Virus record (IMG/VR): IMGVR_UViG_3300013101_001415
DNA length: 64,000 nt
Source of the DNA: a virus
Reading direction: 5' to 3' (one strand)
Part shown: positions 37 through 39,800 of the stretch, piece by piece
How the letters are laid out: every line of letters starts with the position of its first letter
Position numbering within the stretch: position 1 is the first letter of the stretch
Notes under the pieces: generated by a model
Told to the model about the DNA's origin: nothing
What the model saw: the letters and a program-made list of their open reading frames with translations, nothing else
Database searches by the model: none
Translations under genes and position numbers: made by a program

Positions 37-1227
37 TTGGATTGGTATCGAACCAGGTATAGTGATGTGATCAGAATCGTGGGTTACGCAGGTACTGGAA
101 AAACAACACTCATGACTAAAATTGCATCTAATATCAGGAGAAATAAAGATCTTGGAAGGAGAGGTGCATATAATATTGCTTTTTGTGCATTTACTGGAAA
201 GGCTGCATTTGTTTTGGAAAATAAATTACTAGAAAATGGTTCTGTAAAAAATGAAGATTATGTCGGAACCATACATGGATTATTATACTCACCCAGATAT
301 AAAAGAAAAAATGGGAAGAAAGTTATAGCTGGGTGGGTATTAAAATCTGACTTAGATGTAGACTTAATCATAGTAGATGAAGGTTCAATGATATCTAAAG
401 AATTATGGTCAGATTTATTGTCTTATGGTATTCCTATAATTGTGTGTGGAGACCATGGACAATTACCACCAGTTGGTGCAAGGTTTGATTTATTAAAAGA
501 CGCCGATTTTCAATTAAAAGAAATACACAGACAAGCTCTTGATAATCCAATTATTCAATTAACAATTGATATAAGAAAAACAGGTTATATAAAACCAGGT
601 ATTTATAATAAACATGTGTTTAAATTAGATTGGAATAATGAACAGACTAAACAAATTTATAATAAACTTGATTGGTCAGAGGAAGGAAAAAATATTATCC
701 AATTATGTGGTTTTAATAAAACTAGAGTTAATTTAAATAAAGCTATTAGAAAAAAATTAAATTATAAATTGGATGATCCATATCCAGGTGAAAGGGTTAT
801 ATGTCTTAAAAATAACCACTCTACAGGTATTAAGAATGGTCAATTAGGATCTCTTGTATGGGTTTATAATGCAGGAAAAGATTTATATGATTTGACTATT
901 CAGATGGATGGTTTTGGAGATAATTTACATTCCAGCTTAGCTCATAGAGAAAGTTTCGGAAAAGATATATATAACGATGTGATGGAAATTGACTTCAAAA
1001 AAACATATGCTAAAAAATTAAAAGAATATGATCAAGGTGATATTGATTTGTTTGATTTTGGTTATGCAACAACTGTACATAAAAGTCAAGGGTCTGAATG
1101 GGAAAAAGTAGTATTGTTTGAACAAAGAAATCAATACCAAAATGATCAAGATTATGCTCGTTGGTTATATACTGCAGCGACAAGAGCGAAAGAAAAGTTA
1201 TTTATAATTTATAATTACTGGGGTTAA
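37..1227 (+). CDS. dda: Dda-like SF1B DNA helicase (RecD/Pif1 family); may start upstream of window
   Basis: Walker A GYAGTGKTT near N-terminus; DEGSM Walker B-like; C-terminal VHKSQGSEW motif typical of RecD/Dda helicases. Confidence 0.8.
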   Translation: MDWYRTRYSDVIRIVGYAGTGKTTLMTKIASNIRRNKDLGRRGAYNIAFCAFTGKAAFVLENKLLENGSVKNEDYVGTIHGLLYSPRYKRKNGKKVIAGWVLKSDLDVDLIIVDEGSMISKELWSDLLSYGIPIIVCGDHGQLPPVGARFDLLKDADFQLKEIHRQALDNPIIQLTIDIRKTGYIKPGIYNKHVFKLDWNNEQTKQIYNKLDWSEEGKNIIQLCGFNKTRVNLNKAIRKKLNYKLDDPYPGERVICLKNNHSTGIKNGQLGSLVWVYNAGKDLYDLTIQMDGFGDNLHSSLAHRESFGKDIYNDVMEIDFKKTYAKKLKEYDQGDIDLFDFGYATTVHKSQGSEWEKVVLFEQRNQYQNDQDYARWLYTAATRAKEKLFIIYNYWG

Positions 1228-1228
1228 A

Positions 1229-1783
1229 ATGAAACAAGAAGAATTAACAAAAATATCAAAATATCTTAGTTATATTCTTAGACATAAACCAGAGTCAATA
1301 GGTATAAAATTAAGTGAAAACGGGTGGTGTTCAATTGATGAATTAATTGAAAAAACAACCAAATTTAATTTAACCAAAGAAGTTATTGATATTGTAATTC
1401 AAACAAATGACAAACAGAGATTTATTTCAAATTTAAGTAGTACTATGATTAGAGCAAATCAGGGTCATTCAATTGATATTGATTTGGGGTTAGAACCTAT
1501 TAAACCTCCAACGAGATTATTTCATGGAACTGCAATTCGATTTATGGATAGTATTAAAAAGAAAGGTATAACTAAACAAAATAGACAATATGTTCATCTT
1601 AGTGAATCTATTTCTATAGCTTGGCATGTAGGAAGTCGTCATGGTAAACCAATAGTTTTGTTTATTTCATGTGATAAAATGATTAAGGATGGTTATAAAT
1701 TTTATAAATCTGAAAATAATGTTTGGTTGGTAAATGATATTCCATATGAATATATAAAAATAAGGAGTCACAATGAATATTAA
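1229..1783 (+). CDS. kptA: RNA 2'-phosphotransferase Tpt1/KptA
   Basis: Near-colinear match to KptA: LSKYLSYILRHKPESIGIKL..GW, RFIS, QGHS, LFHGT, YVHLS, GSRHGKPIVL, NVWL. Confidence 0.85.
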   Translation: MKQEELTKISKYLSYILRHKPESIGIKLSENGWCSIDELIEKTTKFNLTKEVIDIVIQTNDKQRFISNLSSTMIRANQGHSIDIDLGLEPIKPPTRLFHGTAIRFMDSIKKKGITKQNRQYVHLSESISIAWHVGSRHGKPIVLFISCDKMIKDGYKFYKSENNVWLVNDIPYEYIKIRSHNEY

Positions 1784-3588: not shown

Positions 3589-4341
3589 GTGAAAATGGAA
3601 ACAATAGATGAAAATATATCTATAGATAAAACTATATTAGATCAAAAGTATCCACTGTTGGATAAGTTTAAAGAGATATGTCCTGGTACTTTTAAACATT
3701 CACAAAATGTTGCAAGTATGTGCGATACAGTTGCAATTGAATTGGGTTTAAATATAGATTTGTTAAGATGTGCAGCTCTATATCATGATTGCGGAAAAAT
3801 GAATAATCCAATGTACTTTTCTGAAAATCAAGATGAAAATAATATCCATGATGATTTGGAACCCTACATGTCTTATCAAATTATAACAAGACATGTTGGA
3901 GATAGCATATTATATTTACTTCAAATTCCTGATTTACCACCAGAAGTTATTGAAATAGTTAGTCAACATCATGGTGATACTGTATTGAAGGCGTTTTGGA
4001 ATAAAGATAAAAAAGCACCTGAAGATAAATATAGATATAAATGTTCTAAACCAATTTCATCTGAATCTTTAATTTTGATGATATGTGATTCAGTTGAAGC
4101 AACAACCAGAGCTTTGTTTAATAGTGGTGATGGAAAAGATGATTTTATACAACAAGCTATTGATAGTACTATCTTTAGATTGATGGATGATGAACAATTG
4201 GATAATATGAAAATTGGTGTTTTAAATAAAACCAAAAAAATTCTAATTAAAGAACTTGAAAGTATTTATCATAAAAGAGTTGTTTATAAAGAAGATGAAA
4301 AAGAAGATCTAACAGTTGGCGAAATTAGAACAGGAGATTAA
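3589..4341 (+). CDS. HD-domain metal-dependent phosphohydrolase
   Basis: H..SQNVA then YHDCGK (HD motif) and downstream His/Asp residues typical of the HD superfamily. Confidence 0.7.
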   Translation: MKMETIDENISIDKTILDQKYPLLDKFKEICPGTFKHSQNVASMCDTVAIELGLNIDLLRCAALYHDCGKMNNPMYFSENQDENNIHDDLEPYMSYQIITRHVGDSILYLLQIPDLPPEVIEIVSQHHGDTVLKAFWNKDKKAPEDKYRYKCSKPISSESLILMICDSVEATTRALFNSGDGKDDFIQQAIDSTIFRLMDDEQLDNMKIGVLNKTKKILIKELESIYHKRVVYKEDEKEDLTVGEIRTGD

Positions 4342-4536: not shown

Positions 4537-4659
4537 TAAATTTAAAGGAAATATTAGAATAAAGTAAATAGCTTGGGTGAGGTATGGGAAGGTTAATAAA
4601 TAACCGCTGGGAGGCATAGTCTTGATCAAACTTAGTTAGTAAGTAACCCAAGTTAAAAA

Positions 4660-4696
4660 TGTAACTCCTGATTAATAGGGAGTTACATTTTTTTTG
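4660..4696 (+). terminator. rho-independent terminator-like hairpin
   Basis: GTAACTCC-loop-GGAGTTAC followed by TTTTTTTT; lies in the 230-bp gap before the clamp-loader gene. Confidence 0.6.
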
Positions 4697-4773
4697 TTGT
4701 AATTTTTTATTTAAGAAACTATTTTATACTAATGGAACATATTATAAAGGAAATATTAATTGGAGAAGATTAA

Positions 4774-11992: not shown

Positions 11993-12318
11993 TGGCTATA
12001 TGCTTACACTGTCAAAAAGAATATTATAAATGGGAAAATGATAAAGGAACTATGTTCCAAACATTCTGCTCAGAAGAGTGCGTAAAAAAACATACTATAG
12101 CACTCTTGAATCAAGATTGGCCAAGAGAACCAGCTTTAAAATATAAAGTTCCAGTTGGAGAAATAGCTTGTCCTCATTGTGGAGCTGTGCAACATGGTGT
12201 TTTAACTCCAATATGTGGTGGTTGTGATAGATCATATTGGTCAATGAAAGAGTGCGATGAAAAGAATAATCCACATTTTTATGAACAAGGAGAATCAAGT
12301 GAAACAAACAGAGATTGA
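11992..12318 (+). CDS. Zn-finger protein
   Basis: CLHCQ, CSEEC, CPHCG, CGGC pairs. Confidence 0.45.
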   Translation: MAICLHCQKEYYKWENDKGTMFQTFCSEECVKKHTIALLNQDWPREPALKYKVPVGEIACPHCGAVQHGVLTPICGGCDRSYWSMKECDEKNNPHFYEQGESSETNRD

Positions 12319-12517
12319 GAATAACTTTAAATATCATGCACCAACACCAAAACAAGTTGGAATATATGGACAATTAAGAAATAATGGAAAAGATTTAGTA
12401 GAGTATATAAATGCTGTATGCCCAGATAGTAGAGAGAAATCTATTGCTATTACTAAAATTGAAGAAGCTATTATGTGGGCTAATGCATCAATTGCAAGAG
12501 ATGATCAGTGGCTATAA
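12299..12517 (+). CDS. hypothetical protein (probable GTG start after AGGAG)
   Basis: ORF track frame 12257..12517; AACAAGGAGAATCAAGTG context supports GTG start at 12299. Confidence 0.4.
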   Translation: MKQTEIENNFKYHAPTPKQVGIYGQLRNNGKDLVEYINAVCPDSREKSIAITKIEEAIMWANASIARDDQWL

Positions 12518-12780
12518 AAGTAGTCCATTGTGAGAAACATGATTATGATATTTATATTGGTAGAGGTTCTAAATGGGGAAATCCTTTTATAATAGGAAAA
12601 GATGGAAATAGAACTGAAGTAATAAATAAATATAAAGATTATATATTAAATAATAAAAAATTATTAAGTTGCATCTCTGAATTAAAAAATAAAACCCTTG
12701 GATGTTATTGCAAACCAAAACCATGTCACGGAGATGTATTAATTCAAATCATTGAAAATAAAATAATACTTACAGTATAA
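12508..12780 (+). CDS. DUF4326-family protein
   Basis: YIGRGSKWGNPF ... LGCYCKPKPCHGDVL pattern characteristic of DUF4326. Confidence 0.6.
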   Translation: MAIKVVHCEKHDYDIYIGRGSKWGNPFIIGKDGNRTEVINKYKDYILNNKKLLSCISELKNKTLGCYCKPKPCHGDVLIQIIENKIILTV

Positions 12781-13754: not shown

Positions 13755-14252
13755 ATGAAAAAAATAAGATTTGTAATACATAACCATAAAGCGAGACGTG
13801 CTGGATATCATCAAGATTTGCGATTTGAAGATCCTAATAAAAGCAATCACTGGCACTCATTTGCAGTTCCTAAAACAGTTCCTTTACATTCAGGTAAAAG
13901 AGTTTTAGCAATTAAGACTCATATTCATTCTGAAAAAGAAGCTTTGTTTAAAGGAGATATTCCTGCTGGAGAATATGGCGGTGGTAATATTGAATTATTT
14001 GACCAAGGTGTTGCTACATTAAATAAATTTACACCAGCTCATATTACTATAACTATGCAAGGAAGAAAAGTAAAAGGATTATATCATCTAATTTCACTTG
14101 GAAATGTTGATACAGGAAAATTCAAACAACAACAATATCTATTATTCAAATCCAAAGTTTCAATCACACATCCTTTAAGAATTACTAAGCCAGAAGAAAC
14201 ATTCTATCAAAAACAAATAGCAAAATTTAATAAAATTTTAAAGAAAAAATAA
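13755..14252 (+). CDS. LigD-type 3'-phosphoesterase (PE) domain protein
   Basis: RFVIHNHKARRAGYHQDLRFE, SFAVPK, GDIPAGEYGGGNIELFDQG, GRKVKGLYHLI match the LigD N-terminal phosphoesterase domain. Confidence 0.8.
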   Translation: MKKIRFVIHNHKARRAGYHQDLRFEDPNKSNHWHSFAVPKTVPLHSGKRVLAIKTHIHSEKEALFKGDIPAGEYGGGNIELFDQGVATLNKFTPAHITITMQGRKVKGLYHLISLGNVDTGKFKQQQYLLFKSKVSITHPLRITKPEETFYQKQIAKFNKILKKK

Positions 14253-14414: not shown

Positions 14415-16139
14415 ATGAAATCAGTTATATTGGAAGGTAGTTCTCTTGAAGTTGCAACAAGTAGATATCTCATGAAGGGAGAAAATTGGGATATGTGTGC
14501 AAATCGAGTAGCAGATACAATGGCAGCATCAGAAACAAATAGAGTTAAATATAGAGAAGAATTCCATGAGATGATTGGTACTATGGATTTTTTACCTGGA
14601 GGTCGTATATTAAGAAATTCTGGTAGAACAAGAGGATCATTGTTTAATTGTTATCATTTACCAATTAATGATAATATAGAAGATATAGGTCAATTCTTAA
14701 AAGAGAGTTTAATACTATGGTCAGAGGGTGGAGGGGTAGGAGCAAATTTTTCCAAACTTAGACCAAAGGGAGATGTAATATTAGGTAAAGGTGGAACATC
14801 ATCTGGATTAGTTTCGTTTGTAGAAGCTGCTGATGCTGTTGCTGCAACTATTGAAAGTGGCGGCGCCAGACGAGCAGCTGGTTTAGTTCATGTTGATGTA
14901 AATCATCCAGAAGTTATGGATTTTATTGATGCAAAATTAGTTCATGGTAAAATATCACATTTTAATATATCCGTAGCAATTAATGATGAATTCATACAAG
15001 CAGTTGAAACTGATTCAGACTGGACATTTAAATTTAATCAAAAAGAATATGGTACAATAAAAGCAAAATCAATATGGGATAAGATAGTTGATAATATGAT
15101 TAAGTCTGCAGAACCAGGTTTAATTAATTGGACTAACTTTCAAAAAAATAATTCATGGTATTATGATCCAGTTTTAGGCACGAACCCTTGTGGGGAAACT
15201 TGTCTATCAGCTCGTGATGTATGTGATCTTGGATCTTTAGTATTACCAAATTTTATTACAGGTAATATTAATACAAATTGGAAAAAATTAGAAAAAACTA
15301 TTTTTCTAGCTGTTAGGTTTCTTGATGATGTAATTCAAAGTAATAAATATGTTATGAAAGAAATTGAAAATAAAGCTAATACATCAAGAAGAATTGGTAT
15401 TGGAGTATTAGGAGTAGCTGAATATTTATTTGCTAAAAAAGCAAGATATGGATCTGAAAAATCTATTCAAGAATTAGAAAGATTAATGCAATTTATTAGA
15501 AATAAATGCTATGAAGCTTCAGTTGAACTTGCAAGAGAAAAAGGATCATTTCCTGCATTTGATCCTGTCTTATATGGTAAGTCGTCTTTTATTAGAAAAT
15601 TACCAGCATCTATTAGAATGGACATTAAAAAATATGGAATAAGAAATGTAACATGTCAAGCAATAGCACCAACAGGTACAGTTAGTTTATTAACACCATA
15701 TACAGGATCTGCAGAACCATTATTTGCTAAAGCATATAAAAGAAAAGATAGAGTTAGTGAAAGAATATATGTTCACCCAATGTATGAAACTATGTTAAAA
15801 AATGAAGAAGAAATGCCTGATTGGTTTGTTGACACTTTTGATTTAAACCCACAAGATCATTTTAATATTCAAGCAGTAATACAAAGATATGTTGATAGTT
15901 CAGTATCAAAGACAATTAATTTACCAAAAGAAACTACAACAGAAGATTTAAGTCAATTATTATTAGAAAATATAACTGACTTAAAAGGGGTTACTGTATA
16001 TAGGGATGGTTGTAGAGGTGAACAACCATTAAATAAAATTACTAAAGAACAAGCTATAGAACACATTAGAAATAACATAGTTAAGAGATCACTTGAAACA
16101 GGAGATGTTCAATGTTCTAGCGGAAAGTGTGATATATGA
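14415..16139 (+). CDS. nrdJ: class II (adenosylcobalamin-dependent) ribonucleotide reductase, monomeric type
   Basis: Active-site NPCGETCL motif (class II signature); 574 aa; C-terminal Cys pair. Confidence 0.75.
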   Translation: MKSVILEGSSLEVATSRYLMKGENWDMCANRVADTMAASETNRVKYREEFHEMIGTMDFLPGGRILRNSGRTRGSLFNCYHLPINDNIEDIGQFLKESLILWSEGGGVGANFSKLRPKGDVILGKGGTSSGLVSFVEAADAVAATIESGGARRAAGLVHVDVNHPEVMDFIDAKLVHGKISHFNISVAINDEFIQAVETDSDWTFKFNQKEYGTIKAKSIWDKIVDNMIKSAEPGLINWTNFQKNNSWYYDPVLGTNPCGETCLSARDVCDLGSLVLPNFITGNINTNWKKLEKTIFLAVRFLDDVIQSNKYVMKEIENKANTSRRIGIGVLGVAEYLFAKKARYGSEKSIQELERLMQFIRNKCYEASVELAREKGSFPAFDPVLYGKSSFIRKLPASIRMDIKKYGIRNVTCQAIAPTGTVSLLTPYTGSAEPLFAKAYKRKDRVSERIYVHPMYETMLKNEEEMPDWFVDTFDLNPQDHFNIQAVIQRYVDSSVSKTINLPKETTTEDLSQLLLENITDLKGVTVYRDGCRGEQPLNKITKEQAIEHIRNNIVKRSLETGDVQCSSGKCDI

Positions 16140-17521
16140 TTTTAATATGCGGACCTTGTGTTATTGAAAATTTATCAAAATTACGAAAAGATGCAAAAGA
16201 AATAGTAGCAATTGTTAATAAGTATAACAACATTGATTTTTATTTTAAATCTTCTTGTATTAAAGATAATAGAACACGAATTCAAAACTATTCTGGTCCA
16301 GGTTTTAAATCAGGAATAAAAAGTTTAATTAAAATCAAAGAGGAATTTCATTGTAAAATAACTACTGATTTTCATACAGTTGAACAAATAGAAACATATG
16401 CAAAATATGTAGATTTGATTCAAATTCCAGCATTTTTAGCAATGCAAACTTCTCTTGCAAAAGCTGCATCTAAAACTGGAAAACCTATTCATATTAAAAA
16501 ACCACAATGGTTATCTTCTGGTGATGTTAAAAAACCTGTATCAAAAATTAAAAATTTAAATAAAGATACTAAGGTTTTTATAACAGATAGAGGAACTACA
16601 TTTGGATATGATAATGTTGTAATGGATCCTCGACATATTAGACATATGAATGAAACAAGTAATTGTGATGCTGTATTAGTTGATATTACCCACCCACAAA
16701 ATCATTCAAAAATATATAATAGAAGTTATGCTTTTGATTTAGGAATGTCATCAATTGCATCAGGAGCGAATGGTTTGTTTATTGAATCAACAATTGATCC
16801 TATGAATGCTAGTTGTGATGCAGATTCTCAAATACCTGTTAAAGATTTATTAAAATATATTAAAGGTTTTATAAATTTATATAATTATATAAATAGAACT
16901 TATACAAGCAATATTTATGAAATAAAAAAATTTATAAAATCTCTAGATGAGTGGGATGTATATAATCCTATTACTATAAATGGAGAATTATTGATAGATG
17001 GTAATAGAAGAAAGATGGAAAATCAACATATAAGAATAAATGCAATTGCAAATAATATAAAACCAAATAGTTCATATTTAGATATGGGTTGTAATTCCGG
17101 TTTTATTATTAAAGAATTAATAGAATTAAAAAATATAAAAGCAACAGGTGTTGATATAGAAGATGATATAATAAAATTATGTAAGTTAATAAATAAAATT
17201 GAGAATTTAAATATAAACTTTATTAAACAAGATATAAAAAAATTTATTATAGAGTGTAGAAAAAATAATATAAAGTTTGATAATGTATCAATGTTATCTA
17301 TTGGAGATTTTAATGAAACAGTACTTTTATTAGATTTTCTTTTAAGTATAACAAAATATAATTTATTTTTAGAACCAACAAACCATGAAGGAATGTCAAT
17401 TTCTGAATCAAAAGAAAAAATAAAAAAATTATTCCCTAAAAAATATAATATTGAAATATTAACAATTACAGATTATCAAAATAGATTTTTATTGAAAGTA
17501 CAAAATGCTAAATACAAATGA
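16136..17521 (+). CDS. kdsA: KDO-8-phosphate synthase (KdsA) fused to a C-terminal class I SAM-dependent methyltransferase domain
   Basis: ICGPCVIEN, FKSSCIKDNRTRIQNYSGPG, IQIPAFLAMQTSL, KPIHIKKPQW, DRGTTFGYDNVVMD, VDITHP, GLFIESTIDP align along E. coli KdsA; C-terminal YLDMGCNSGFII (MTase motif I), GVDIEDD. Confidence 0.8.
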   Translation: MILICGPCVIENLSKLRKDAKEIVAIVNKYNNIDFYFKSSCIKDNRTRIQNYSGPGFKSGIKSLIKIKEEFHCKITTDFHTVEQIETYAKYVDLIQIPAFLAMQTSLAKAASKTGKPIHIKKPQWLSSGDVKKPVSKIKNLNKDTKVFITDRGTTFGYDNVVMDPRHIRHMNETSNCDAVLVDITHPQNHSKIYNRSYAFDLGMSSIASGANGLFIESTIDPMNASCDADSQIPVKDLLKYIKGFINLYNYINRTYTSNIYEIKKFIKSLDEWDVYNPITINGELLIDGNRRKMENQHIRINAIANNIKPNSSYLDMGCNSGFIIKELIELKNIKATGVDIEDDIIKLCKLINKIENLNINFIKQDIKKFIIECRKNNIKFDNVSMLSIGDFNETVLLLDFLLSITKYNLFLEPTNHEGMSISESKEKIKKLFPKKYNIEILTITDYQNRFLLKVQNAKYK

Positions 17522-18416
17522 AGTAAGAATAGAAACATGTACAATATGTAATTATTTTTGTATATTTTGTCCTCATTCCACAAAATTTGTTCGTAAAAAA
17601 GAAGAAATGTCGTTAGAAAGATTTTGTTTGATTGTTGATAAAATTAAAAAGGAATTACCTAACATAACCAATATTACAATTTCTGGTTTTGGTGAAGCAT
17701 TTGTAGACTGGCAAATATTAGAAAAAATAAAATATGCAAAAGAATGTGGATTTAAAATTCATATATTATCTAATGGTTATTATTTACCTTACCCAAGAGT
17801 AGATTTTTTAAATGAGGTGGGTGTTGAAGATATAAGAATTAGTTTACATTCAGTTTTATATAAACCATATCATATAATAACTAAAGCTCCTTTATACCAA
17901 TTTAGACAAGTGTTATGGAATATTGATTATATTATCAATGAAACAAATATAAATTTAATATTAACATTTGATATTATACCTGGAATTAATGATGACCAAA
18001 TTGATTTAATTAAAGAAAAATATGATGATTATGCAACAATTGAAATGTGGAAACCTCATAATTGGGTAGATGCTTTTAAATTTAGAAAAGGTGATATAGT
18101 AAAATCAACTTGCGGAAGACCTTGGAATAGTCCATATCAAATACAAGTTGATGGCACAGTTAATATGTGTTGTTTTGATTATAATGGAAAATTGTTATTA
18201 GGGAATTTTTTAAATCATACTATGGAAGATATATTTAATGATAAACCTTTTTTAGATTTAAAAAAACATCATGAGAATAATACATTAAATCAAACTAATT
18301 ATATATGTAAAAATTGCGATCAAAGAAAAGATCAAAATGATATTGTTATTTATAACAATAAATTTAAAAGTAAGGAAAGAATAAATAGGACTTCTACTAA
18401 TTATGAAAAAATCTAA
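17505..18416 (+). CDS. radical SAM enzyme with SPASM-like C-terminal Cys cluster
   Basis: CNYFCIFC (CxxxCxxC) near N-terminus; C-terminal CGRPW, CCFD, CKNCD cysteines. Confidence 0.7.
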   Translation: MLNTNEVRIETCTICNYFCIFCPHSTKFVRKKEEMSLERFCLIVDKIKKELPNITNITISGFGEAFVDWQILEKIKYAKECGFKIHILSNGYYLPYPRVDFLNEVGVEDIRISLHSVLYKPYHIITKAPLYQFRQVLWNIDYIINETNINLILTFDIIPGINDDQIDLIKEKYDDYATIEMWKPHNWVDAFKFRKGDIVKSTCGRPWNSPYQIQVDGTVNMCCFDYNGKLLLGNFLNHTMEDIFNDKPFLDLKKHHENNTLNQTNYICKNCDQRKDQNDIVIYNNKFKSKERINRTSTNYEKI

Positions 18417-19104
18417 TCAAAAAGTTGTTATTTTACATGGTAGTTTTAATTCTGGTAAAACAATAGTTTATAATTTATTTAAAAAAGAAAATAATTATAA
18501 ATGGATAGATATATCCCCAGATCATTTAAAAGATAATAAGGACGAAATAGAATATCAAATTGGTAAAAAATGGTTAAATAAAATAACACCTGATATTGAA
18601 TCATTAGAGATATTTAAAGGTAATTATTTTTTAAATTTGTTTAATTTGTTATTAAAAGAATTTCCTAATTATAATTTTGTTGTAAAACCAGGTGGGTTTG
18701 ACTGGGTTTTAAATAATAAGTTACCACCTAATATATTTTATAATATTTTTATTATTAGACATCCTAAAATTTGCTGGATGGTAAACACCACACATTTTTC
18801 AATAGATGAATTTATTAAAATGTATAAAAAAATATTAATTGGGGTATTTAAAGAAAAAAGTAATGTTATTAAAATTGAAGAGATTGGTAAAAATAAATTA
18901 ATGAACCAATTAATTAAACGAACTGATTTAAAACAAATTAAACCAATTACAAAATTTGATGAATTTTTATTAAAAAAAATTAATTTAGAAACAATTAATG
19001 ATGAATTAGAACAAATTGATGATAAATTAAAAGACTTAATAAAATATTTAGAGTATGATTTAGATACTATAGATATAAATTTAATATTAAAAAGGAATAC
19101 TTAA
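18403..19104 (+). CDS. P-loop kinase-like protein
   Basis: Walker A ILHGSFNSGKT at N-terminus. Confidence 0.5.
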   Translation: MKKSNQKVVILHGSFNSGKTIVYNLFKKENNYKWIDISPDHLKDNKDEIEYQIGKKWLNKITPDIESLEIFKGNYFLNLFNLLLKEFPNYNFVVKPGGFDWVLNNKLPPNIFYNIFIIRHPKICWMVNTTHFSIDEFIKMYKKILIGVFKEKSNVIKIEEIGKNKLMNQLIKRTDLKQIKPITKFDEFLLKKINLETINDELEQIDDKLKDLIKYLEYDLDTIDINLILKRNT

Positions 19105-19700
19105 TGAATTATTTTATTGACACAGCTGATCAGGATGAAATTGAAAAATGGAAAAATTTTGTTGATGGAGCAACTAGCAACCCATCATTATTAAATAAAT
19201 CTAAAACTAATGCAGATGAATTTTTTATTAAAAATAAACATAATTTTAATAAAATATTTATTCAAGTTAGATCTTTAAAAGAATTATATCACTATAACAC
19301 AAGCGATAAAATTATATTCAAAGTTCCATTGTTAATAACAAAAGATTTTAATGGATTTGATTTAATTAAAAAAATAAAAAATATGGGTTATAAAACTTGT
19401 GCAACTATTACTTATGATCTCTTCCAATTTGATTATGCTTGTGAAGTTGATAGTGACTATAGTATTGTTTTATGTGCTAAAAATAAAAATAAAGATTTTC
19501 TTATAGAATGTGTAAATCTAAAAGAAGAAAGAAAATATAATACTAAAATTATAGCAGCAAGTTTTAGATCTATAGTTGATATTAGAGATGCTGTAGAATT
19601 TGGTGCTGATTATGCTACTGTTCCTCCAAAATATATGGAAGGGTTGTTTTTTAATCAAGATGCAATTAATGATTTTAATGATTTTTATGGAATAAAATAA
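19104..19700 (+). CDS. fructose-6-phosphate aldolase / transaldolase-family (TalC/FSA-like) enzyme
   Basis: FIDTAD...GATSNPSLL N-terminal motif and Schiff-base Lys context IIFKVP. Confidence 0.65.
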   Translation: MNYFIDTADQDEIEKWKNFVDGATSNPSLLNKSKTNADEFFIKNKHNFNKIFIQVRSLKELYHYNTSDKIIFKVPLLITKDFNGFDLIKKIKNMGYKTCATITYDLFQFDYACEVDSDYSIVLCAKNKNKDFLIECVNLKEERKYNTKIIAASFRSIVDIRDAVEFGADYATVPPKYMEGLFFNQDAINDFNDFYGIK

Positions 19701-20446
19701 TGAGAACTGTAGCAGTTATTTCTGCAAGATTAAAGTCAACTAGATTCCCAAATAAAATTATCCACAAACTTAATGGAAAGAGAATAATAGAACATGTTAT
19801 TAATAACACATCTAAGTTAAATTTTATTGATGATATAATTATAGCAACAGACGATGAAGATTTTGGTATAAAAATAACAGATGAATTTGACCAGGTTAAA
19901 GGTTATTTTATAAGCGATGCATGTTGTGGGACTCATAGGACATATCAATATTTTAAATCAATAAATAAATATAAATATAAGTATTATGTTTCTATACCAT
20001 GTGATGAACCATTAATAAACCCAGAAGAGATAAATAAAACATTCTCAAATATAGATGAATTATTTAATAATGAAATTGTAACTTTCTATACAAAATTTTT
20101 TTGTATGGAGGATTTAACAAGTCCATTGTCTTGTAAAATAGTTACGTCAAATGAAAATTATATGGTTTATAATTCAAGAGCAGTAGTTCCTATTCTAAAG
20201 AATGGATCTTATTTACCTTTAGATGATTATAAAAAACATTTAGGAATTTTTATATTTCCTAGAAATGTATTTGAAGAACACGGTGAAAATTTATGGTGGG
20301 GTACAACAGATATTGAATCATTAGAGCAAAATAGATTCCTCCAAAGAAAAGTACTTATTAAATTATATGAAACTAAACATATAGGTTTTGGTATTGATGT
20401 TTATTCTCAAATAAAAAAAATGGAGGAAAGAATGAATTGTGTTTAA
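19700..20446 (+). CDS. kdsB: CMP-3-deoxy-ulosonate cytidylyltransferase (KdsB/NeuA family)
   Basis: VISARLKSTRFPNKI..LNGKRIIEHV, IIIATDDED, CGTHRT, IPCDEPLI, KHLGIFIFPR align with KdsB. Confidence 0.75.
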   Translation: MRTVAVISARLKSTRFPNKIIHKLNGKRIIEHVINNTSKLNFIDDIIIATDDEDFGIKITDEFDQVKGYFISDACCGTHRTYQYFKSINKYKYKYYVSIPCDEPLINPEEINKTFSNIDELFNNEIVTFYTKFFCMEDLTSPLSCKIVTSNENYMVYNSRAVVPILKNGSYLPLDDYKKHLGIFIFPRNVFEEHGENLWWGTTDIESLEQNRFLQRKVLIKLYETKHIGFGIDVYSQIKKMEERMNCV

Positions 20447-20507
20447 AGGGTATTATTATTTTATTTAGAACATATATAAAAGATTAAAGTAAAAAAAGGA
20501 GTACAAT

Positions 20508-33104: not shown

Positions 33105-35444
33105 ATGTTAAGATTATTAAATCCAAAAAGTTTTTGTAAAAATCTTAAACCAGTAACATCTATGATCACTACCACTAAATCTGGTGACTTTCATGAAGAA
33201 GGTTTGTTTAGTGAAGACATTTTTGGACCAGATGGTTCGCCAGATAGAAGAATTATATTCTCTTATTTTGAATTATATGGTTACGCTATTCATCCTGCTA
33301 TGTATAGAATATTATTACAAATAGATAGAAGAGTAGAAAAGTTTATTTCTACTGAAGAATCTTTTATTTTAGATAAAGATGGTATATTAGAGATAAACAA
33401 TAAAGGTGTTACTGGGATGAAAGAGTTTATAAAATTATTTCCTAGTATAAATTGGAGAGGTGGAACTGAATTAAGAAAAAAGCTTATTAAACTCATTAAA
33501 AAAGAAACTAAAAACAACACAATGTTTATTGATAAAATTATTGTAATTCCTCCAGATTTAAGACCTTCTATAAAAGGTGAAGATGGTAATAGGATGGATG
33601 ATCAATTAAATGATGTATATATTTCTGTTATGAGAAAGGCTTCTCAATTAAGATCTTCTGGTTCTGGTCCGTTATATGATTTATTAAATTATTCTATGCA
33701 ATTAGCAGTTATGGATCATGATAATTATATTAGATCAAAGATTGGTAAAAAGAAAGGTATTATTCGAGATCAAATGTTAGGAAAACGTATTGATTTTTCT
33801 GGTCGATCTGTTATAACACCTGATCCAAAAATAAAAATCAATGAAGTTGGATTACCACTAAGATTAGCTATTAGCTTATTTGAACCTTTTATTATGAACA
33901 GATTATTATATTCTGGTAAAGTTGATAAAGATGTTTTAGAAAAAGGTATCAAAGAATTTAATGGAATGGAACTTTCAACTGAATCTGTTAAAAGAGTAAT
34001 GAAAGGTATTAAAGAAGGAGATAAAATTCCAGAAAATCTTTATGAATTATTCTTTATACAAACAGAAGTTTCAATGATGGGTCGTGTTGTAGTAGTAAAA
34101 AGGGATCCAGTTTTACATACTCAAAGTTATTTAGCTTATTTTCCTGTCTTACATAGAGGCGATACAATGCTTATGTCTACTACTCAAGTTGGTGTTCATA
34201 ATGCAGATTTTGATGGCGATACAATGGCTGTATATCATCCATTAACAGATGAGGCTCAAGATGAAGCAAGAACAAGAATGATGAAACTAACTTCTGGAAC
34301 ATCATCTTCTGAGTTTATTTTTGGTTTATCAAAAGAAATATGGGCTGGGTTATATACTATTACAAAAGATAAAAAACCAACAGGGTCACCATTAGCAGTA
34401 TCTAATGAAGATATTGAAAATGCAACCGAACCGTATATAGCAGTTAAATATAGAGGTCAAAAAACAACAATGGGTAAAGCTATTGTTAATAGTTGCTTTC
34501 CAAAAGATATGGGTTATATGGAAGCACAAGCAACTAAAAAAACAATTAACTCAAAGATTGAACAGACTTATAATAAACATGGTGATGATATTATTAAAAT
34601 AGTTGTTGATAAATTAAAAGAAGTTGGATTTAAATGGGCTACCATCATGGCTCCATCTATGAGCTTAGATACTTTTGAATTACCAGCCTCGGTTTTAAAG
34701 ATTAAAGAAAAATTAAAAACAGCAGATCCAGAGGAAGCTCAAACTCTAATAGAGGAAGCTCAAAAAATATTAGAAAAGCATTTAGACAATACAGGATTTG
34801 GAGATCTTGCTAATTCAGGGTCTACTAAGGGATGGGGTCAACCAATGCAAATACTAGTTGCAAAAGGTGTTATCGCTGATCCTGACGGTAATGTTTTAGA
34901 TCCTATATCAGGGTCATTTGCTGATGGTTTATCTAATAGAGAATACTTTGATGCCTCTCAAGGAGCAAGAAAAGGTATTATTGATAGAGTTATTAATACA
35001 GCTGAAACAGGATATATGTCAAGAAAATTAGCTTATTTATTAAATACAGTAGAACTTGACCCTCGTATAAAAGATTGTAAAACAACAAAAACATTAAACA
35101 TAAAACTTAATGATGTTTTAATTAAAAGATTTACAGGAAGGTTTGTTATTAAAAACGGGAAATTGATGGAATTTGAAAGAGCTAAATTTAAAGTTGGTGA
35201 TATAGCTAGTATAAGAACTCCTATCTATTGTAAGTCTGAAAAAATATGTCATACTTGTTATGGTAAATTATTACAAAGACATCAAACTCCTTATATTGGA
35301 ATATTAGCTGCTCAACTTATTGGAGAAAGAGGCACGCAATTAATAATGAAAACTTTTCATACAGGTGGAGCAGTATCTTTAGTAAAACGTGATATGTTAG
35401 ATGATATTATTAATAATGATCCATTATCTGGATTGGAAAAATAA
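33105..35444 (+). CDS. multisubunit RNA polymerase beta-prime subunit, N-terminal and catalytic part (through bridge helix and trigger-loop start)
   Basis: GLFSEDIFGP (region A), VHNADFDGDTMAVYHP (universal Mg-binding motif), GARKGIIDRVINTAETGYMSRKL (bridge helix), CHTCYG...AAQLIGERGTQLIMKTFHTGG. Confidence 0.85.
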   Translation: MLRLLNPKSFCKNLKPVTSMITTTKSGDFHEEGLFSEDIFGPDGSPDRRIIFSYFELYGYAIHPAMYRILLQIDRRVEKFISTEESFILDKDGILEINNKGVTGMKEFIKLFPSINWRGGTELRKKLIKLIKKETKNNTMFIDKIIVIPPDLRPSIKGEDGNRMDDQLNDVYISVMRKASQLRSSGSGPLYDLLNYSMQLAVMDHDNYIRSKIGKKKGIIRDQMLGKRIDFSGRSVITPDPKIKINEVGLPLRLAISLFEPFIMNRLLYSGKVDKDVLEKGIKEFNGMELSTESVKRVMKGIKEGDKIPENLYELFFIQTEVSMMGRVVVVKRDPVLHTQSYLAYFPVLHRGDTMLMSTTQVGVHNADFDGDTMAVYHPLTDEAQDEARTRMMKLTSGTSSSEFIFGLSKEIWAGLYTITKDKKPTGSPLAVSNEDIENATEPYIAVKYRGQKTTMGKAIVNSCFPKDMGYMEAQATKKTINSKIEQTYNKHGDDIIKIVVDKLKEVGFKWATIMAPSMSLDTFELPASVLKIKEKLKTADPEEAQTLIEEAQKILEKHLDNTGFGDLANSGSTKGWGQPMQILVAKGVIADPDGNVLDPISGSFADGLSNREYFDASQGARKGIIDRVINTAETGYMSRKLAYLLNTVELDPRIKDCKTTKTLNIKLNDVLIKRFTGRFVIKNGKLMEFERAKFKVGDIASIRTPIYCKSEKICHTCYGKLLQRHQTPYIGILAAQLIGERGTQLIMKTFHTGGAVSLVKRDMLDDIINNDPLSGLEK

Positions 35445-36470: not shown

Positions 36471-36818
36471 ATGTATGAATATAAAGCAATGATATCAAGA
36501 GTTGTTGATGGTGATACCTTTGATGCAGAAGTTGATGTAGGATTTAGTATTACAATTAAACATAGGTTTAGATTAACAGAAATTGATACACCTGAAACAT
36601 GGAGACCAAAGACATCATCTGAAGCAGAACATGGGTTTAGATGTACTAATTTTGTTAAATCATTAATAGAATATAAAGATGTTATAATAAAATCATCAAA
36701 ACTTGGAATATATGGAAGATATGAAGCTTCATTAACTTTACCAGATGGTAATGATTTAGCAACAATATTAAAAGAAAATGGATTTGAAAAATTAGATAGC
36801 TATCCAGAGGATAAATAA
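36471..36818 (+). CDS. staphylococcal (thermo)nuclease-like nuclease
   Basis: RVVDGDTFDAEV...RFRLTEIDTPET and GRYEASLTLPDGNDLATILKENGF match SNase fold motifs. Confidence 0.7.
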   Translation: MYEYKAMISRVVDGDTFDAEVDVGFSITIKHRFRLTEIDTPETWRPKTSSEAEHGFRCTNFVKSLIEYKDVIIKSSKLGIYGRYEASLTLPDGNDLATILKENGFEKLDSYPEDK

Positions 36819-39800
36819 TGATTCAATTTAAAGCGCTTAAACCATTTACACATGTTGTTAATGGGATACGATTTCCACAAGATTCCAAGAATCCTTTCAT
36901 TATACTTTACTTTAGTGAAAATTCAACATTAGTTGATGATTATTCTAAATTAAATTTAAAAAGAGTGGATGTTAAAAAAGTTATCGTTCCTAAAACAAAA
37001 ATTCCATATAGCTTTATGTCACCAGAACTTAAAAAAACATATAAGGCGTATGGTTTGGTAGCTTCTAGTTCTACACAATCAATACCTCAAAAACAAAATC
37101 TTATGTATGACTTAACACCTTTTTTAAATATATTAGATAATGCATATAAATTAAAAAATTATAGAGCTCGTGGTGGTTTTATATTAAAAAATATAATTGA
37201 TAAAATATTTAGTTCATTTCCTAATAATTATCAAAAGATTTTTATGTATAGTACCAATGCAACTAAAGGTATGAATAAATATATTGATAGAAAAATATTT
37301 CCATTTGTTATAGAATTAAAGAAAAATAAATTATACTATGATCATTTGATACTAAATACCATTGGGGATAATTCATCTAGATATCGACTATTAATGAAAG
37401 ATAGATCTATTAAATTCAATAGAATAAATTTATTTCTTAAAAATATTAAAATTATTGATGATGATGAAGAACTTGAAAATAAAATAAATACTGCGACCAA
37501 TACAGTAATTAAAAAAATTAAAGATGATATAACACCTTCTAACAAAAATAAATTTAAACAATCAATACAAAAGTTTTTTGAGAAAAATCCAAATACTTTA
37601 GAAAAAGCTCATAATAATGATATAACTAATAATGACGCTAAAGATATTGCAACAGCATCTGTATTATATAGAACAACTGGCGATATGGGAAAATCTCGTA
37701 AAACGACTTCAAAAATTCCAGAAAATAAAAAAACTGCTGCTCTAAAAGTTATTGATAAAAAATATGCTGATGAATTATTACAACCTAAAAAAACAGAAAC
37801 CACAGCAGAAGATTTAGTTATACAATTATCAAATGTTTCTAATGCAGTTGGTAATAAATCACCTGAACATATTTTTGAAAAAAGAAAAATAGACTTTGAA
37901 ACTAATTTAAAGAAAGATGTTGTGAATTCTTTTAAGGTTTTAGAAACAAAAAATATTCCGTTAAAGTTTAAAACTATTAATATTGTTAAAAAACCTATAA
38001 GAAGAGGGGATTTATCTCCATCAAATATTAGTACTATAAAAATTACCATGGTTGATAAATTTAAAAGAGAACATGAAATTTTATTAGATGTTCCTAATAT
38101 AGCAGATGATGGAACATTTCAAATTAATGGTAAGAAAAAATGTCTTATTAATCAATTGGTTTTATGTCCAATAACATTCCCTAAAAAATATGATAGTAAG
38201 TTTGAAAGTAGTTATTCTACATTCCATATTTGGAGTAAAAGAACAAAAAGAGAAGAATATTTAGAAGCATACATTGGATCATATAAAGTTCCTTTATTGG
38301 TTCTATTATCCTTTAGTTTTGGTTTTAAAGAGACACTGAAATTATATGATATTAGGTATAAGATAACAAACGAGAAACCTGATAAAGAGGTTAAATGGAC
38401 CGTTAAAGTTGACGATAACCAATGGATTTTATTTGAAAATATCAATACAAAATTAAAAGAAGAATTAATTCAATCATTAGTTCATTCCAACATTAGTTCA
38501 TATAATTTAAAAGCAGAGTTTTTAACTAAACAATATTTTAATGATTTGATTATTAAAATAGCGGGTCGTATTAATTCAACATTTTTAATACAATCAAATT
38601 TAGAGAATATTGTGGATCCTGTAGCTAAACAAGTTTTAATAAATAAACAATTACCATCTGAATTACATTTGATTATGAAATATATGTCATCTAAAGCAGT
38701 TGAAGGATTTGTACAAAAAAGAAATGATATATCAAATCAAAGAATAAGAAATTCAGAGATTCTTGTTCATCTAGCACAAAAGCAAATTTTAGCAGCTCAC
38801 ACAGAATATAAAGAACAAGTATTATCTGGCAATAAAAAAGCTATATTTTCTATATCTCAAACTAAAGTATTAAGCGATTTTATAAATTCAGAAATTGTAG
38901 CTGATATGGAGTATGCTAATCCAATAGAAGAAATGGCTACTAAAACAAGAGTTTCTCCTGTTGGTAAAGCAATTGGAGGTATACCTGATAAACAAGCTAT
39001 ACAAAATGAAGGTCGTAATGTTCATGATTCTATGTTTGGAAATATTGATACACTTGATACACCTGAAGGTGAAAATGTTGGTATTGTACAGCAATTAACT
39101 GTTGATGCTTTCATAACATCAGCGAGAGGTATTATTCAAACTAAAGATAAAAAAGAAGGTGAAAATTCTGGACTTTTATCTACAACAGCTGCTCAAATAC
39201 CATTTGTTGAAAATAACGATGGTAATAGGGTTATGTTTGGATGTAGTCAAATGAGACAAGCTGTACCATTAAGAAACCCAGAAATACCAATGATTCAATC
39301 AGGATATGAATCAATTTTAACAAGTGTCTTGTCTGATGATTTTATCAAAAAATCTCCTTGTAATGGAAAGATTACTAGGGTAACAAAAGATGATATTTCT
39401 ATTAAATGTAGTACTGGTGGTAATAAAGTTATATCAATAACACCAGTTCATTTAAGATCAGGATCTGGTAAGGATACATTAAGTGTATTTAAACCTACTG
39501 TAAAGGTTGGTCAAGTTGTTAAATATAAAAGTATAATAGCTGAAGGATCATGTATTACTGGTGGATCTATTGCTCTTGGAAGAAGTATGTGTGTTGCTTT
39601 AATGCCTTATAAAGGTTTTAACTTTGAGGATGGAATTGTTATATCTGAAAGAATAGTAAAAGAAGGAATTCTAAATTCATTACATGGTATAGTTGAAGAA
39701 GTTGAAATAGCAAAAGATGACAGAGTTGTATTTATAAATAAATTAGGAGCTGAGACTATAAAAGGAGAACCATTATTAAGAAAGAGTATTGGAGAGATTG

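Follow-up and report, generated by a model that had tools for sequence, protein, structure and literature searches.

The Tpt1/KptA gene of a large uncultured phage

We analysed a 64,000-nucleotide (nt) stretch of viral DNA from IMG/VR record IMGVR_UViG_3300013101_001415 (hereafter the window), centring on the open reading frame (ORF) at 1229-1783, which an original prediction made from the letters alone had called an unambiguous homolog of the RNA 2'-phosphotransferase Tpt1/KptA carried by a phage. Both calls were borne out. The window is part of a large uncultured phage of ~250 kb, with 27% guanine-cytosine (GC) content and its own multisubunit RNA polymerase, and its replication, RNA polymerase, amidase and SLT genes confirm the phage assignment. 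The Tpt1 gene begins 1 nt behind the stop codon of a superfamily 1B (SF1B) helicase gene and runs at its 3' end into the next ORF (Table 1); small reverse-strand ORFs that overlap it are without support.

The encoded protein is a genuine Tpt1/KptA, and every family feature that could be tested is present. It matches the Pfam family PF01885 (PTS_2-RNA; E=1.7e-49, 168.7 bits against a cut-off of 26) over profile positions 3-176 of 177, PHROG 5470 'RNA 2'-phosphotransferase' (E=4.3e-69) and four RNA 2'-phosphotransferase models of NCBIfam. The equivalog cut-off of NCBIfam NF002014 is marginally missed (234.8 bits against 239), a near-miss that reflects divergence from the bacterial seed sequences while the family features are retained. 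Sequence searches of the PDB returned 13 distinct Tpt1 sequences, headed by the enzyme of Runella slithyformis (7kw8; E=1.5e-47, 46% identity), in which Arg16, His17, Arg64 and Arg119 are essential by mutagenesis, as are their equivalents in the yeast and Escherichia coli enzymes (PMC6097658). In the alignment these residues correspond to Arg18, His19, Arg64 and Arg119 of the phage protein, which are invariant in alignments of 32-34 Tpt1 homologues; the catalytic R-H-R-R tetrad, which the original prediction had left to be checked, is intact.

Structure prediction agrees with this assignment. An AlphaFold2 model built on a 32-sequence alignment reached a mean predicted local distance difference test (pLDDT) score of 88.8 and a predicted template modelling (pTM) score of 0.57, the latter being expected for two lobes joined by a hinge. 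In a Foldseek search of the PDB, the best 22 matches were all Tpt1/KptA entries (E 3.5e-19 to 5.7e-5; TM score up to 0.71), and the matches after these were La-module and PARP domains that each covered one lobe. The modelled protein would thus have the two-lobe fold of the family, with an N-terminal RNA-binding lobe and a C-terminal ADP-ribosyltransferase-like lobe for nicotinamide adenine dinucleotide (NAD+). Because it shares 46% identity with the biochemically proven Runella enzyme and keeps the tetrad, the phage protein is very probably a canonical internal 2'-phosphotransferase.

A gene-sized presence/absence polymorphism at a conserved site

Tpt1 is a strain-variable accessory gene of this phage and not part of its core. 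In the near-identical scaffold JAPOGZ010000001.1 (L026; 246,859 bp), the helicase gene is followed directly by the ORF for the 133-amino-acid (aa) protein, without Tpt1. In a DNA alignment of this relative with the window the flanks of the gap are identical, and the megablast segments on its two sides are 99.0% and 99.9% identical. The edges of the missing segment lie in similar start-codon contexts, TAAAATGAAA on the left and CACAATGAAT on the right, and the Tpt1-less junction is repeated in Logan contig L030, which may derive from the same sample as the scaffold. Across window positions 1-28,606, where the identity of the two genomes is 99.0-99.9%, just three indels of cassette size set them apart. 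Two of these are found in the window only, namely Tpt1 and a 4.35-kb KDO-like sugar cluster; the third, found in the relative only, is a 467-nt segment with a 160-aa ORF that falls at window ~4541-4549 (intergenic region 4537-4773), upstream of the terminator-like hairpin listed in Table 1.

The position of the gene is conserved elsewhere in the clade. Adjacency of helicase and Tpt1 is kept in the contigs L001/L002, L004 (Tpt1 74% identical) and L005 (67%), and the helicase is the sole Tpt1 neighbour conserved across the phage clade; in L004 and L005 the order is SLT, SF1B helicase, Tpt1, small ORFs and clamp loader. Base composition of Tpt1 (GC 26%, and 13% at third codon positions) is like that of the neighbouring phage genes. 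Since the gene occupies the same site in relatives whose Tpt1 is 67-74% identical and has a phage-like composition, we infer long residence in the clade, followed by a recent loss in a single lineage. The advance here is a modest one: a clean, gene-sized presence/absence polymorphism of Tpt1 at a conserved site behind an SF1B helicase. The Tpt1-bearing and Tpt1-less genomes, otherwise 99-99.9% identical over the compared region, form a natural pair that resembles an isogenic knockout.

The phage genome around Tpt1

The window is the final 64 kb of a 73-kb ENA metagenome contig (L001), in which a further 9 kb upstream could be read. A genome of roughly 250 kb is indicated because near-identical sequence occurs on the 246,859-bp NCBI scaffold and on a 269,986-bp contig. 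All genes of the window lie on the plus strand and are tightly packed. They include a large set for replication and repair (the SF1B Dda/RecD2-like helicase, a clamp loader, a RuvC-like resolvase, ribonucleotide reductase, UvsX/RecA, topoisomerase II subunits, an SNF2-type helicase and Mre11/Rad50), RNA polymerase beta'- and beta-like genes, an amidase and SLT, together with many ORFs without matches. No Rfam family was found in the window. No close cultured relative emerged: a 20-kb megablast query drew no match from 50,697 phage records, and the RNA polymerase beta-like protein reaches at most ~32% identity, in partial alignments. Identity of the RNA polymerase beta'- and beta-like genes to their counterparts in jumbo phages, for example Staphylococcus phage S6, Yersinia phiR1-37 and YerA41, is only 22-32%. 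This divergence suggests a deep-branching lineage of phages that encode a multisubunit RNA polymerase of their own.

Because the Tpt1 start lies 1 nt after the helicase stop, the two genes are probably co-transcribed. The first strong terminator-like signal 3' of the helicase, Tpt1 and HD genes is the hairpin upstream of the clamp-loader gene, and the three genes therefore probably form one transcription unit; a promoter scan of the same region gave matches at chance level. From this arrangement, Tpt1 is probably expressed with the early or replication genes.

Table 1 Features of the window that are referred to in the text
Feature	Position	Strand	Remarks
SF1B (Dda/RecD2-like) helicase	37-1227	+	Pfam AAA_30, AAA_19, UvrD_C_2; NCBIfam RecD2; truncated by the window edge, true length 410 aa
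Tpt1/KptA RNA 2'-phosphotransferase	1229-1783	+	ATG-to-stop ORF, 184 aa; tetrad R18, H19, R64, R119
Indel segment	1234-1771		~540 nt, essentially the Tpt1 ORF; in the window, missing from the near-identical relative
ORF, 133 aa	1773-2174	+	overlaps the Tpt1 3' end by 11 nt; own AAGGAG ribosome-binding site inside Tpt1
HD/HDIG protein, soluble PgpH-type HD phosphodiesterase homologue	3589-4341	+	Pfam 1.5e-15; 250 aa, HD domain only
Terminator-like hairpin	4655-4692	+	15-bp stem, then T run; upstream of the clamp-loader gene
Acb2_Tad1_hairpin gene	12299-12517	+	72 aa; longer ORF 12257-12517
DUF4326 gene	12508-12780		directly after the Acb2_Tad1_hairpin gene
Standalone LigD_N 3'-phosphoesterase (PF13298)	13755-14252	+	165 aa; Pfam 8e-18, 65 bits against a cut-off of 31.1
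Sugar cassette	16138-20489	+	4.35 kb
RNA polymerase beta'-like gene	33105-35444	+	779 aa
RNA polymerase beta-like gene	36818-40909	+	1363 aa
Vault-shoulder gene	45372-47921	+	849 aa; major-vault-protein shoulder domain
DUF2201 gene	49272-50687	+	VWA-like/metallopeptidase protein
Pilin-like gene	55315-55692	+	N-terminal methylation motif
PTPS/QueD-like gene	56431-56859	+	3e-31
CreA homologue	62542-63030	+	

Tpt1 in other viruses and in cells

The phage KptA family and the idea that it serves RNA repair are already known: tblastn detected Tpt1 in 98 deposited phage records at 41-52% identity (the phiCD211 group and jumbo phages of Erwinia, Dickeya, Klebsiella and Serratia), PHROG 5470 is devoted to it, and two papers by Iyer et al. 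(2021, 2022; PMC7824862, PMC9503650) have proposed jumbo-phage KptA as a 2'-phosphate clean-up enzyme in tRNA repair. As a Tpt1 finding alone the present gene is therefore ordinary, since about 100 deposited phages are annotated with one. Like phiCD211 kptA, Erwinia Alexandravirus gp274 and the Dickeya phage AD1 gene, it belongs to PHROG 5470 and is a lone gene; it differs from them in that its phage has no close cultured relative, in its fixed site behind the helicase and in its presence or absence at strain level.

One unrelated viral contig from IMG/VR offers a more telling arrangement. In IMGVR_UViG_3300009504_000946 (L017 9466-16034), genes for an AAA_28 P-loop protein, Tpt1, an RNase T-like exonuclease, Hen1 and Pnkp follow one another in a row, with Tpt1 (46% identical to the phage protein) within 1.5 kb of Hen1 and Pnkp. 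The Hen1_N match is strong (1.8e-63), and the 902-aa Pnkp, of kinase-phosphatase-ligase build, resembles Capnocytophaga Rnl in its ligase domain (4xru, 8e-54) and Clostridium thermocellum Pnkp in its phosphatase domain (4j6o, 3e-13). For some viral Tpt1 genes a physical link to heal-and-seal machinery thus exists, and the cluster supports an RNA-repair role for at least some of them. The arrangement appears to be new: going by the genera of the record names listed, it was not found among deposited phages, as the genera of the five deposited Hen1 phages (Vibrio, Xanthomonas, Stenotrophomonas) are absent from the Tpt1-bearing ones. Hen1 and Pnkp are not present in our window or its sampled flanks. 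Other viral contigs place Tpt1 before an NAD+-dependent DNA ligase (L018), an HD_4 domain protein (L019) or a calcineurin-like phosphoesterase (Metallophos; L008).

Among cells, the nearest named homologues belong to marine Gammaproteobacteria (55-61% identity). Their KptA proteins (M269, Microbulbifer, Pseudomonas sp. HK3) have the same length and are chromosomal, whereas the phage copy has a phage-adapted GC content of 26%. The closest is that of Alteromonadaceae bacterium M269 (SMNZ01000007.1, L034 2658-6540; 61% identity); the context of a second cellular homologue was uninformative. The M269 cluster, the composition of which is given below, ties a bacterial KptA to NAD salvage and ADP-ribose turnover and not to RNA ligases.

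The best-characterised relative is the Runella enzyme (7kw8/7kw9), which has the same length and the same essential Arg-His-Arg-Arg set as the phage protein. Its NAD+-dependent activity as an internal 2'-phosphotransferase is proven, it complements yeast tpt1-delta, and its gene is one of four in a putative repair cluster that also encodes a ligase-like protein, an HD-Pnk and a methyltransferase-HIT protein (PMC6097658), whereas the phage gene instead follows a DNA helicase, without a detectable ligase or Pnk nearby. The Runella protein is inept on terminal 2'- or 3'-phosphates (PMC6573784).

A possible role in RNA repair

The overall explanation that we consider best is that the locus encodes an active, canonical Tpt1, held as an accessory phage gene with a role in RNA repair; we put it forward tentatively, our doubt slightly exceeding our confidence. 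Chemically, an RNA 2'-phosphate would attack C1'' of NAD+ to give a 2'-phospho-ADP-ribosyl RNA intermediate, which would then be resolved by transesterification, and this canonical reaction is the one that every tested Tpt1 performs while side activities vary (PMC6097658, PMC6182162). In the phage, the enzyme would strip the 2'-phosphate during repair of tRNA or other RNA that host ribotoxins have cut to leave a 2',3'-cyclic phosphate, acting after a ligase that leaves a junction 2'-PO4; that ligase and a cyclic phosphodiesterase would be supplied by the remaining ~150 kb of the genome or by the host. A counter-defence gene of such conditional use would be expected to be gained and lost between strains. 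That Tpt1 performs the last clean-up step in repair of RNA, probably tRNA, after ribotoxin damage is possible but stays on the doubtful side.

By analogy, the linkage of viral Tpt1 to Hen1 and Pnkp in L017 and the ligase and HD-Pnk cluster of Runella lend this role support. The same chemistry would be expected as in the fungal and plant pair of Trl1/AtRNL with Tpt1, where the junction 2'-PO4 is removed after the action of a ligase that needs a 2'-PO4/3'-OH end. The logic is also shared with phage T4, in which Pnkp and Rnl1 repair tRNA-Lys cleaved by PrrC, that is, a phage repair pathway reverses the damage done by a host anticodon nuclease. In the T4 pathway, the 2',3'-cyclic phosphate is fully removed before ligation, so that there is no 2'-PO4 junction and no need for Tpt1. 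One caveat attaches to the wording of the published proposal: the substrate of canonical Tpt1 is an internal 2'-PO4 once ligation has taken place, not a terminal phosphate beforehand, and removal of terminal phosphates is a property of only some Tpt1 enzymes (PMC6573784). The suggestion in the original prediction that the phage gene counters host anticodon nucleases or toxin RNases stands as the most plausible general role, but it had been published before and the locus does not demonstrate it.

Several observations weigh against the repair role, among them the outcome of a search for partners. This covered ~83 kb of the ~250-kb genome (the window with 9 kb on its upstream side, plus 10 kb downstream taken from the relative) by Pfam or PHROG scans, which in the window took in ~60 ORFs, and by PDB sequence searches. 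Within Pfam and PHROG sensitivity it found no RNA or DNA ligase, RtcB, 2H, Macro, NADAR or Nudix protein, nor any clear polynucleotide kinase. The earlier statement that the window holds no ligase accordingly holds at that sensitivity, and the wider hunt that had been proposed for a Trl1-like, RtcB or Rnl ligase and a polynucleotide kinase yielded none in the stretch covered. Set against the fungal and plant systems, the same ~83 kb contains no detectable Trl1-type ligase, cyclic phosphodiesterase or kinase, and no tRNA gene, intron-containing or otherwise, was found in the window. In all-against-all clustering of the ORFs within 10 kb on either side of 20 Tpt1 loci, 14 of them from IMG/VR, no gene family recurred beside phage Tpt1 beyond the close clade, and in phiCD211 and an Erwinia phage Tpt1 lies among hypothetical genes. 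The KptA gene of M269 is the last in a cluster with a PRPP-synthetase-like gene, NAPRTase and an ADP-ribosylglycohydrolase, beside which an NrtR-type Nudix regulator is divergently placed. To our knowledge, there is no demonstrated case, in such hosts, of a bacterial or phage ligase whose junctions retain a 2'-PO4. What Tpt1 does in taxa that lack a ligase of the fungal type is also acknowledged to be obscure (PMC6573784).

A further point on the same side is an RlaP-like gene (PF10127; 35.1 bits against 23; PHROG 388, 2.5e-22), which lies outside the window, ~8 kb upstream of Tpt1 (L001 2048-2794, plus strand). RlaP enzymes extend damaged RNA 3' ends and require three strictly conserved Asp residues (bioRxiv 10.64898/2025.12.29.696909). 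An exhaustive HMMER search followed by alignment showed that its relatives carry S-D-x-D where this protein has S-N-F-N, so that two of the three catalytic Asp residues are lost. Even the closest sequences from the exhaustive search share 30-40% identity with it, in alignments that are partial, a word-indexed search returned none that was close, and there was no PDB sequence match; in the scaffold of the Tpt1-less relative, the RlaP region is a run of Ns. Judged by these residues, the protein is probably inactive or repurposed.

Candidate partners did not survive closer inspection. The value of the RlaP-like gene as a pointer to an RNA ligase elsewhere is weakened by the NxN that replaces DxD. 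An upstream P-loop protein considered as a polynucleotide kinase fell below the Pfam threshold and has only a generic P-loop likeness to adenylate and shikimate kinases. The 133-aa ORF behind Tpt1 has no Pfam or PHROG match, bears no likeness to its equivalents in L004 and L005 and is present in the Tpt1-less strain, and was rejected as a partner. A 341-aa unannotated ORF in the downstream 10 kb of the relative had no ligase match.

The in vivo role of bacterial and phage Tpt1/KptA has long been a puzzle, for the fungal-type ligase that makes the sole established Tpt1 substrate is missing from these organisms; this locus does not solve it.

Other readings of the gene

Tpt1 could instead act mainly as an ADP-ribosyltransferase that caps 5'-phosphorylated RNA or DNA ends, whereby it would protect or mark phage nucleic acids or disable those of the host. 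A subset of Tpt1 enzymes ADP-ribosylate 5'-PO4 RNA or DNA ends (PMC6182162), and the Streptomyces and human KptA proteins do so in vitro, although the physiological relevance of phosphate-end ADP-ribosylation is itself unclear (PMC11833690). The conserved adjacency with the helicase and the site in a replication module would fit a DNA-end substrate, and the NAD+-dependent DNA ligase that adjoins Tpt1 in L018 also speaks for the capping reading, but adjacency may mean no more than shared timing of expression. Runella Tpt1, the closest characterised relative at 46% identity, is reported to be inactive in 5'-phosphate DNA capping (PMC6182162), and the sampled 83 kb hold no Macro, ARH or PARG-type eraser. 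We regard capping as the main activity as unlikely.

A second alternative takes Tpt1 into NAD+ or ADP-ribose conflict or metabolism, where it would act on 2'-phosphorylated nucleotides or signals or produce ADP-ribose cyclic phosphate, and would join the Acb2/Tad1-like sponge and the PgpH-like phosphodiesterase of the window in a counter-defence toolkit against nucleotide signals. The M269 cluster argues for such a link, as does the presence in one window of an Acb2_Tad1_hairpin protein and a PgpH-type HD protein, and KptA structures with mononucleotide and ADP-ribose ligands exist, to judge by their PDB titles. However, no physiologically relevant small-molecule substrate has been established for Tpt1, the cellular context is a single example, the three phage genes are not mutually adjacent and the HD gene is not conserved beside Tpt1, so that we consider this quite unlikely. 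It would be a long shot that Tpt1 is no accessory of RNA ligation but a strain-variable, NAD+-dependent counter-defence enzyme, grouped with the sponge and the PgpH-like phosphodiesterase, that acts on a 2'-phosphorylated immune signal or nucleotide, or ADP-ribosylates 5'-phosphate ends made by host nucleases; were it true, it would supply the physiological substrate of bacterial and phage KptA that has been missing for decades.

The clean deletion in a near-identical genome and the lack of a conserved functional partner might also mean that Tpt1 is a dispensable passenger without selected function that is being lost. This is decidedly unlikely for a gene that relatives keep at the same locus at 67-74% protein identity with invariant catalytic residues, that has a fully phage-adapted base composition and that, in phages, has its own PHROG family and 98 deposited records.

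The HD protein and the LigD-type phosphoesterase

Two further enzymes had been grouped with Tpt1 in the original prediction, an HD hydrolase and a LigD 3'-phosphoesterase (PE), and at the level of domains both calls hold (the former also by NCBIfam; Table 1). The only PDB relative of the HD protein is Listeria Lmo1466 (4s1b; E=3.9e-31, 38% identity), to which residues 20-234 align over positions 4-221 of the 222-residue chain. The ligand positions of 4s1b are kept at H37, H66-D67, H102, H127-H128 and D167. Lmo1466 is PgpH, one of two Listeria phosphodiesterases for cyclic di-AMP (c-di-AMP), and the HD domain of this enzyme specifically binds c-di-AMP, cleaving it to pApA (PMC5575661); the extracellular domain at the N terminus and the seven membrane-spanning helices of full-length PgpH, described in the same paper, are missing from the phage protein. 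These features point to a protein of cyclic-dinucleotide phosphodiesterase type and not to RNA end healing, and the phage could use it to manipulate c-di-AMP signalling in the host or to break down defence signals. In L004 and L005, which keep Tpt1, the gene does not occur between helicase and clamp loader; its product is 100% identical in the Tpt1-less 247-kb scaffold. Homologues are very scarce among deposited phages, where they occur in eight records, mostly as short fragments.

The PE has its best PDB matches in the archaeal standalone enzymes 3p43 and 3p4h, and also matches 3n9b. Standalone PEs are known in archaea and bacteria, and six residues are essential in PaePE and MbaPE (PaePE H42, H48, D50, R52, H84 and Y88; PMC3082917). 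Five of these are kept here (H11, H19, D21, R23, H58), while Glu62 takes the place of the essential Tyr88, a substitution that is invariant in the subfamily down to 44% identity, and His56 stands at the position of PaePE Glu82. By these residues, the protein is best placed in a variant subfamily with an uncertain activity profile. Its gene sits in a DNA-metabolism setting, between the RuvC-like resolvase and ribonucleotide reductase, 12 kb from Tpt1; scans of the window gave no Ku or ligase match and hence no association with non-homologous end joining. No homologue was found in the 50,697 phage records or in PHROG, whereas many metagenome contigs of the phage clade, up to 270 kb, carry the protein at 71-100% identity. 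It is independent of Tpt1, since it is kept unchanged (100% identical) in the near-identical strain that lacks Tpt1. Re-read in this way, the neighbours of Tpt1 are a protein of cyclic-dinucleotide phosphodiesterase type, a variant PE subfamily not represented in deposited phages and a probably inactive RlaP-like protein.

The proposal that Tpt1, the PE and the HD protein form one end-healing or end-capping pathway is disfavoured as very unlikely: all three process phosphoryl or phosphoester groups from one strand within 13 kb, Tpt1 and HD in one probable transcription unit, and phosphoesterases follow other viral Tpt1 genes (HD_4 in L019, Metallophos in L008), but the HD protein is PgpH-like and absent beside Tpt1 in relatives, the PE lacks the catalytic Tyr and persists among recombination and nucleotide-metabolism genes of a Tpt1-less genome, and no ligase was found.

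Further genes of the window

The Acb2_Tad1_hairpin gene had a precomputed match to Pfam PF24729 in every copy of this phage that was compared, and this family marks nucleotide-sponge proteins of the anti-CBASS and anti-Thoeris kind. The sugar cassette, which is entirely missing from the 99-99.9% identical 247-kb relative, encodes a KDO-8-P-synthase-like DAHP_synth_1 domain fused to a methyltransferase, a radical SAM/SPASM protein, a 233-aa protein without assignment, a transaldolase-like protein and a CMP-KDO-synthetase-like cytidylyltransferase, and may serve nucleotide-sugar synthesis for the modification of DNA or surface. The next 10 kb beyond the 3' end of the window, as seen in the relative (L036 11303-19658), encode a radical SAM protein, a WYL_2 protein, an 862-aa unannotated protein and two ThiF/E1-like proteins. 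The vault-shoulder, DUF2201, pilin-like, PTPS/QueD-like and CreA genes are unusual cargo for a phage.

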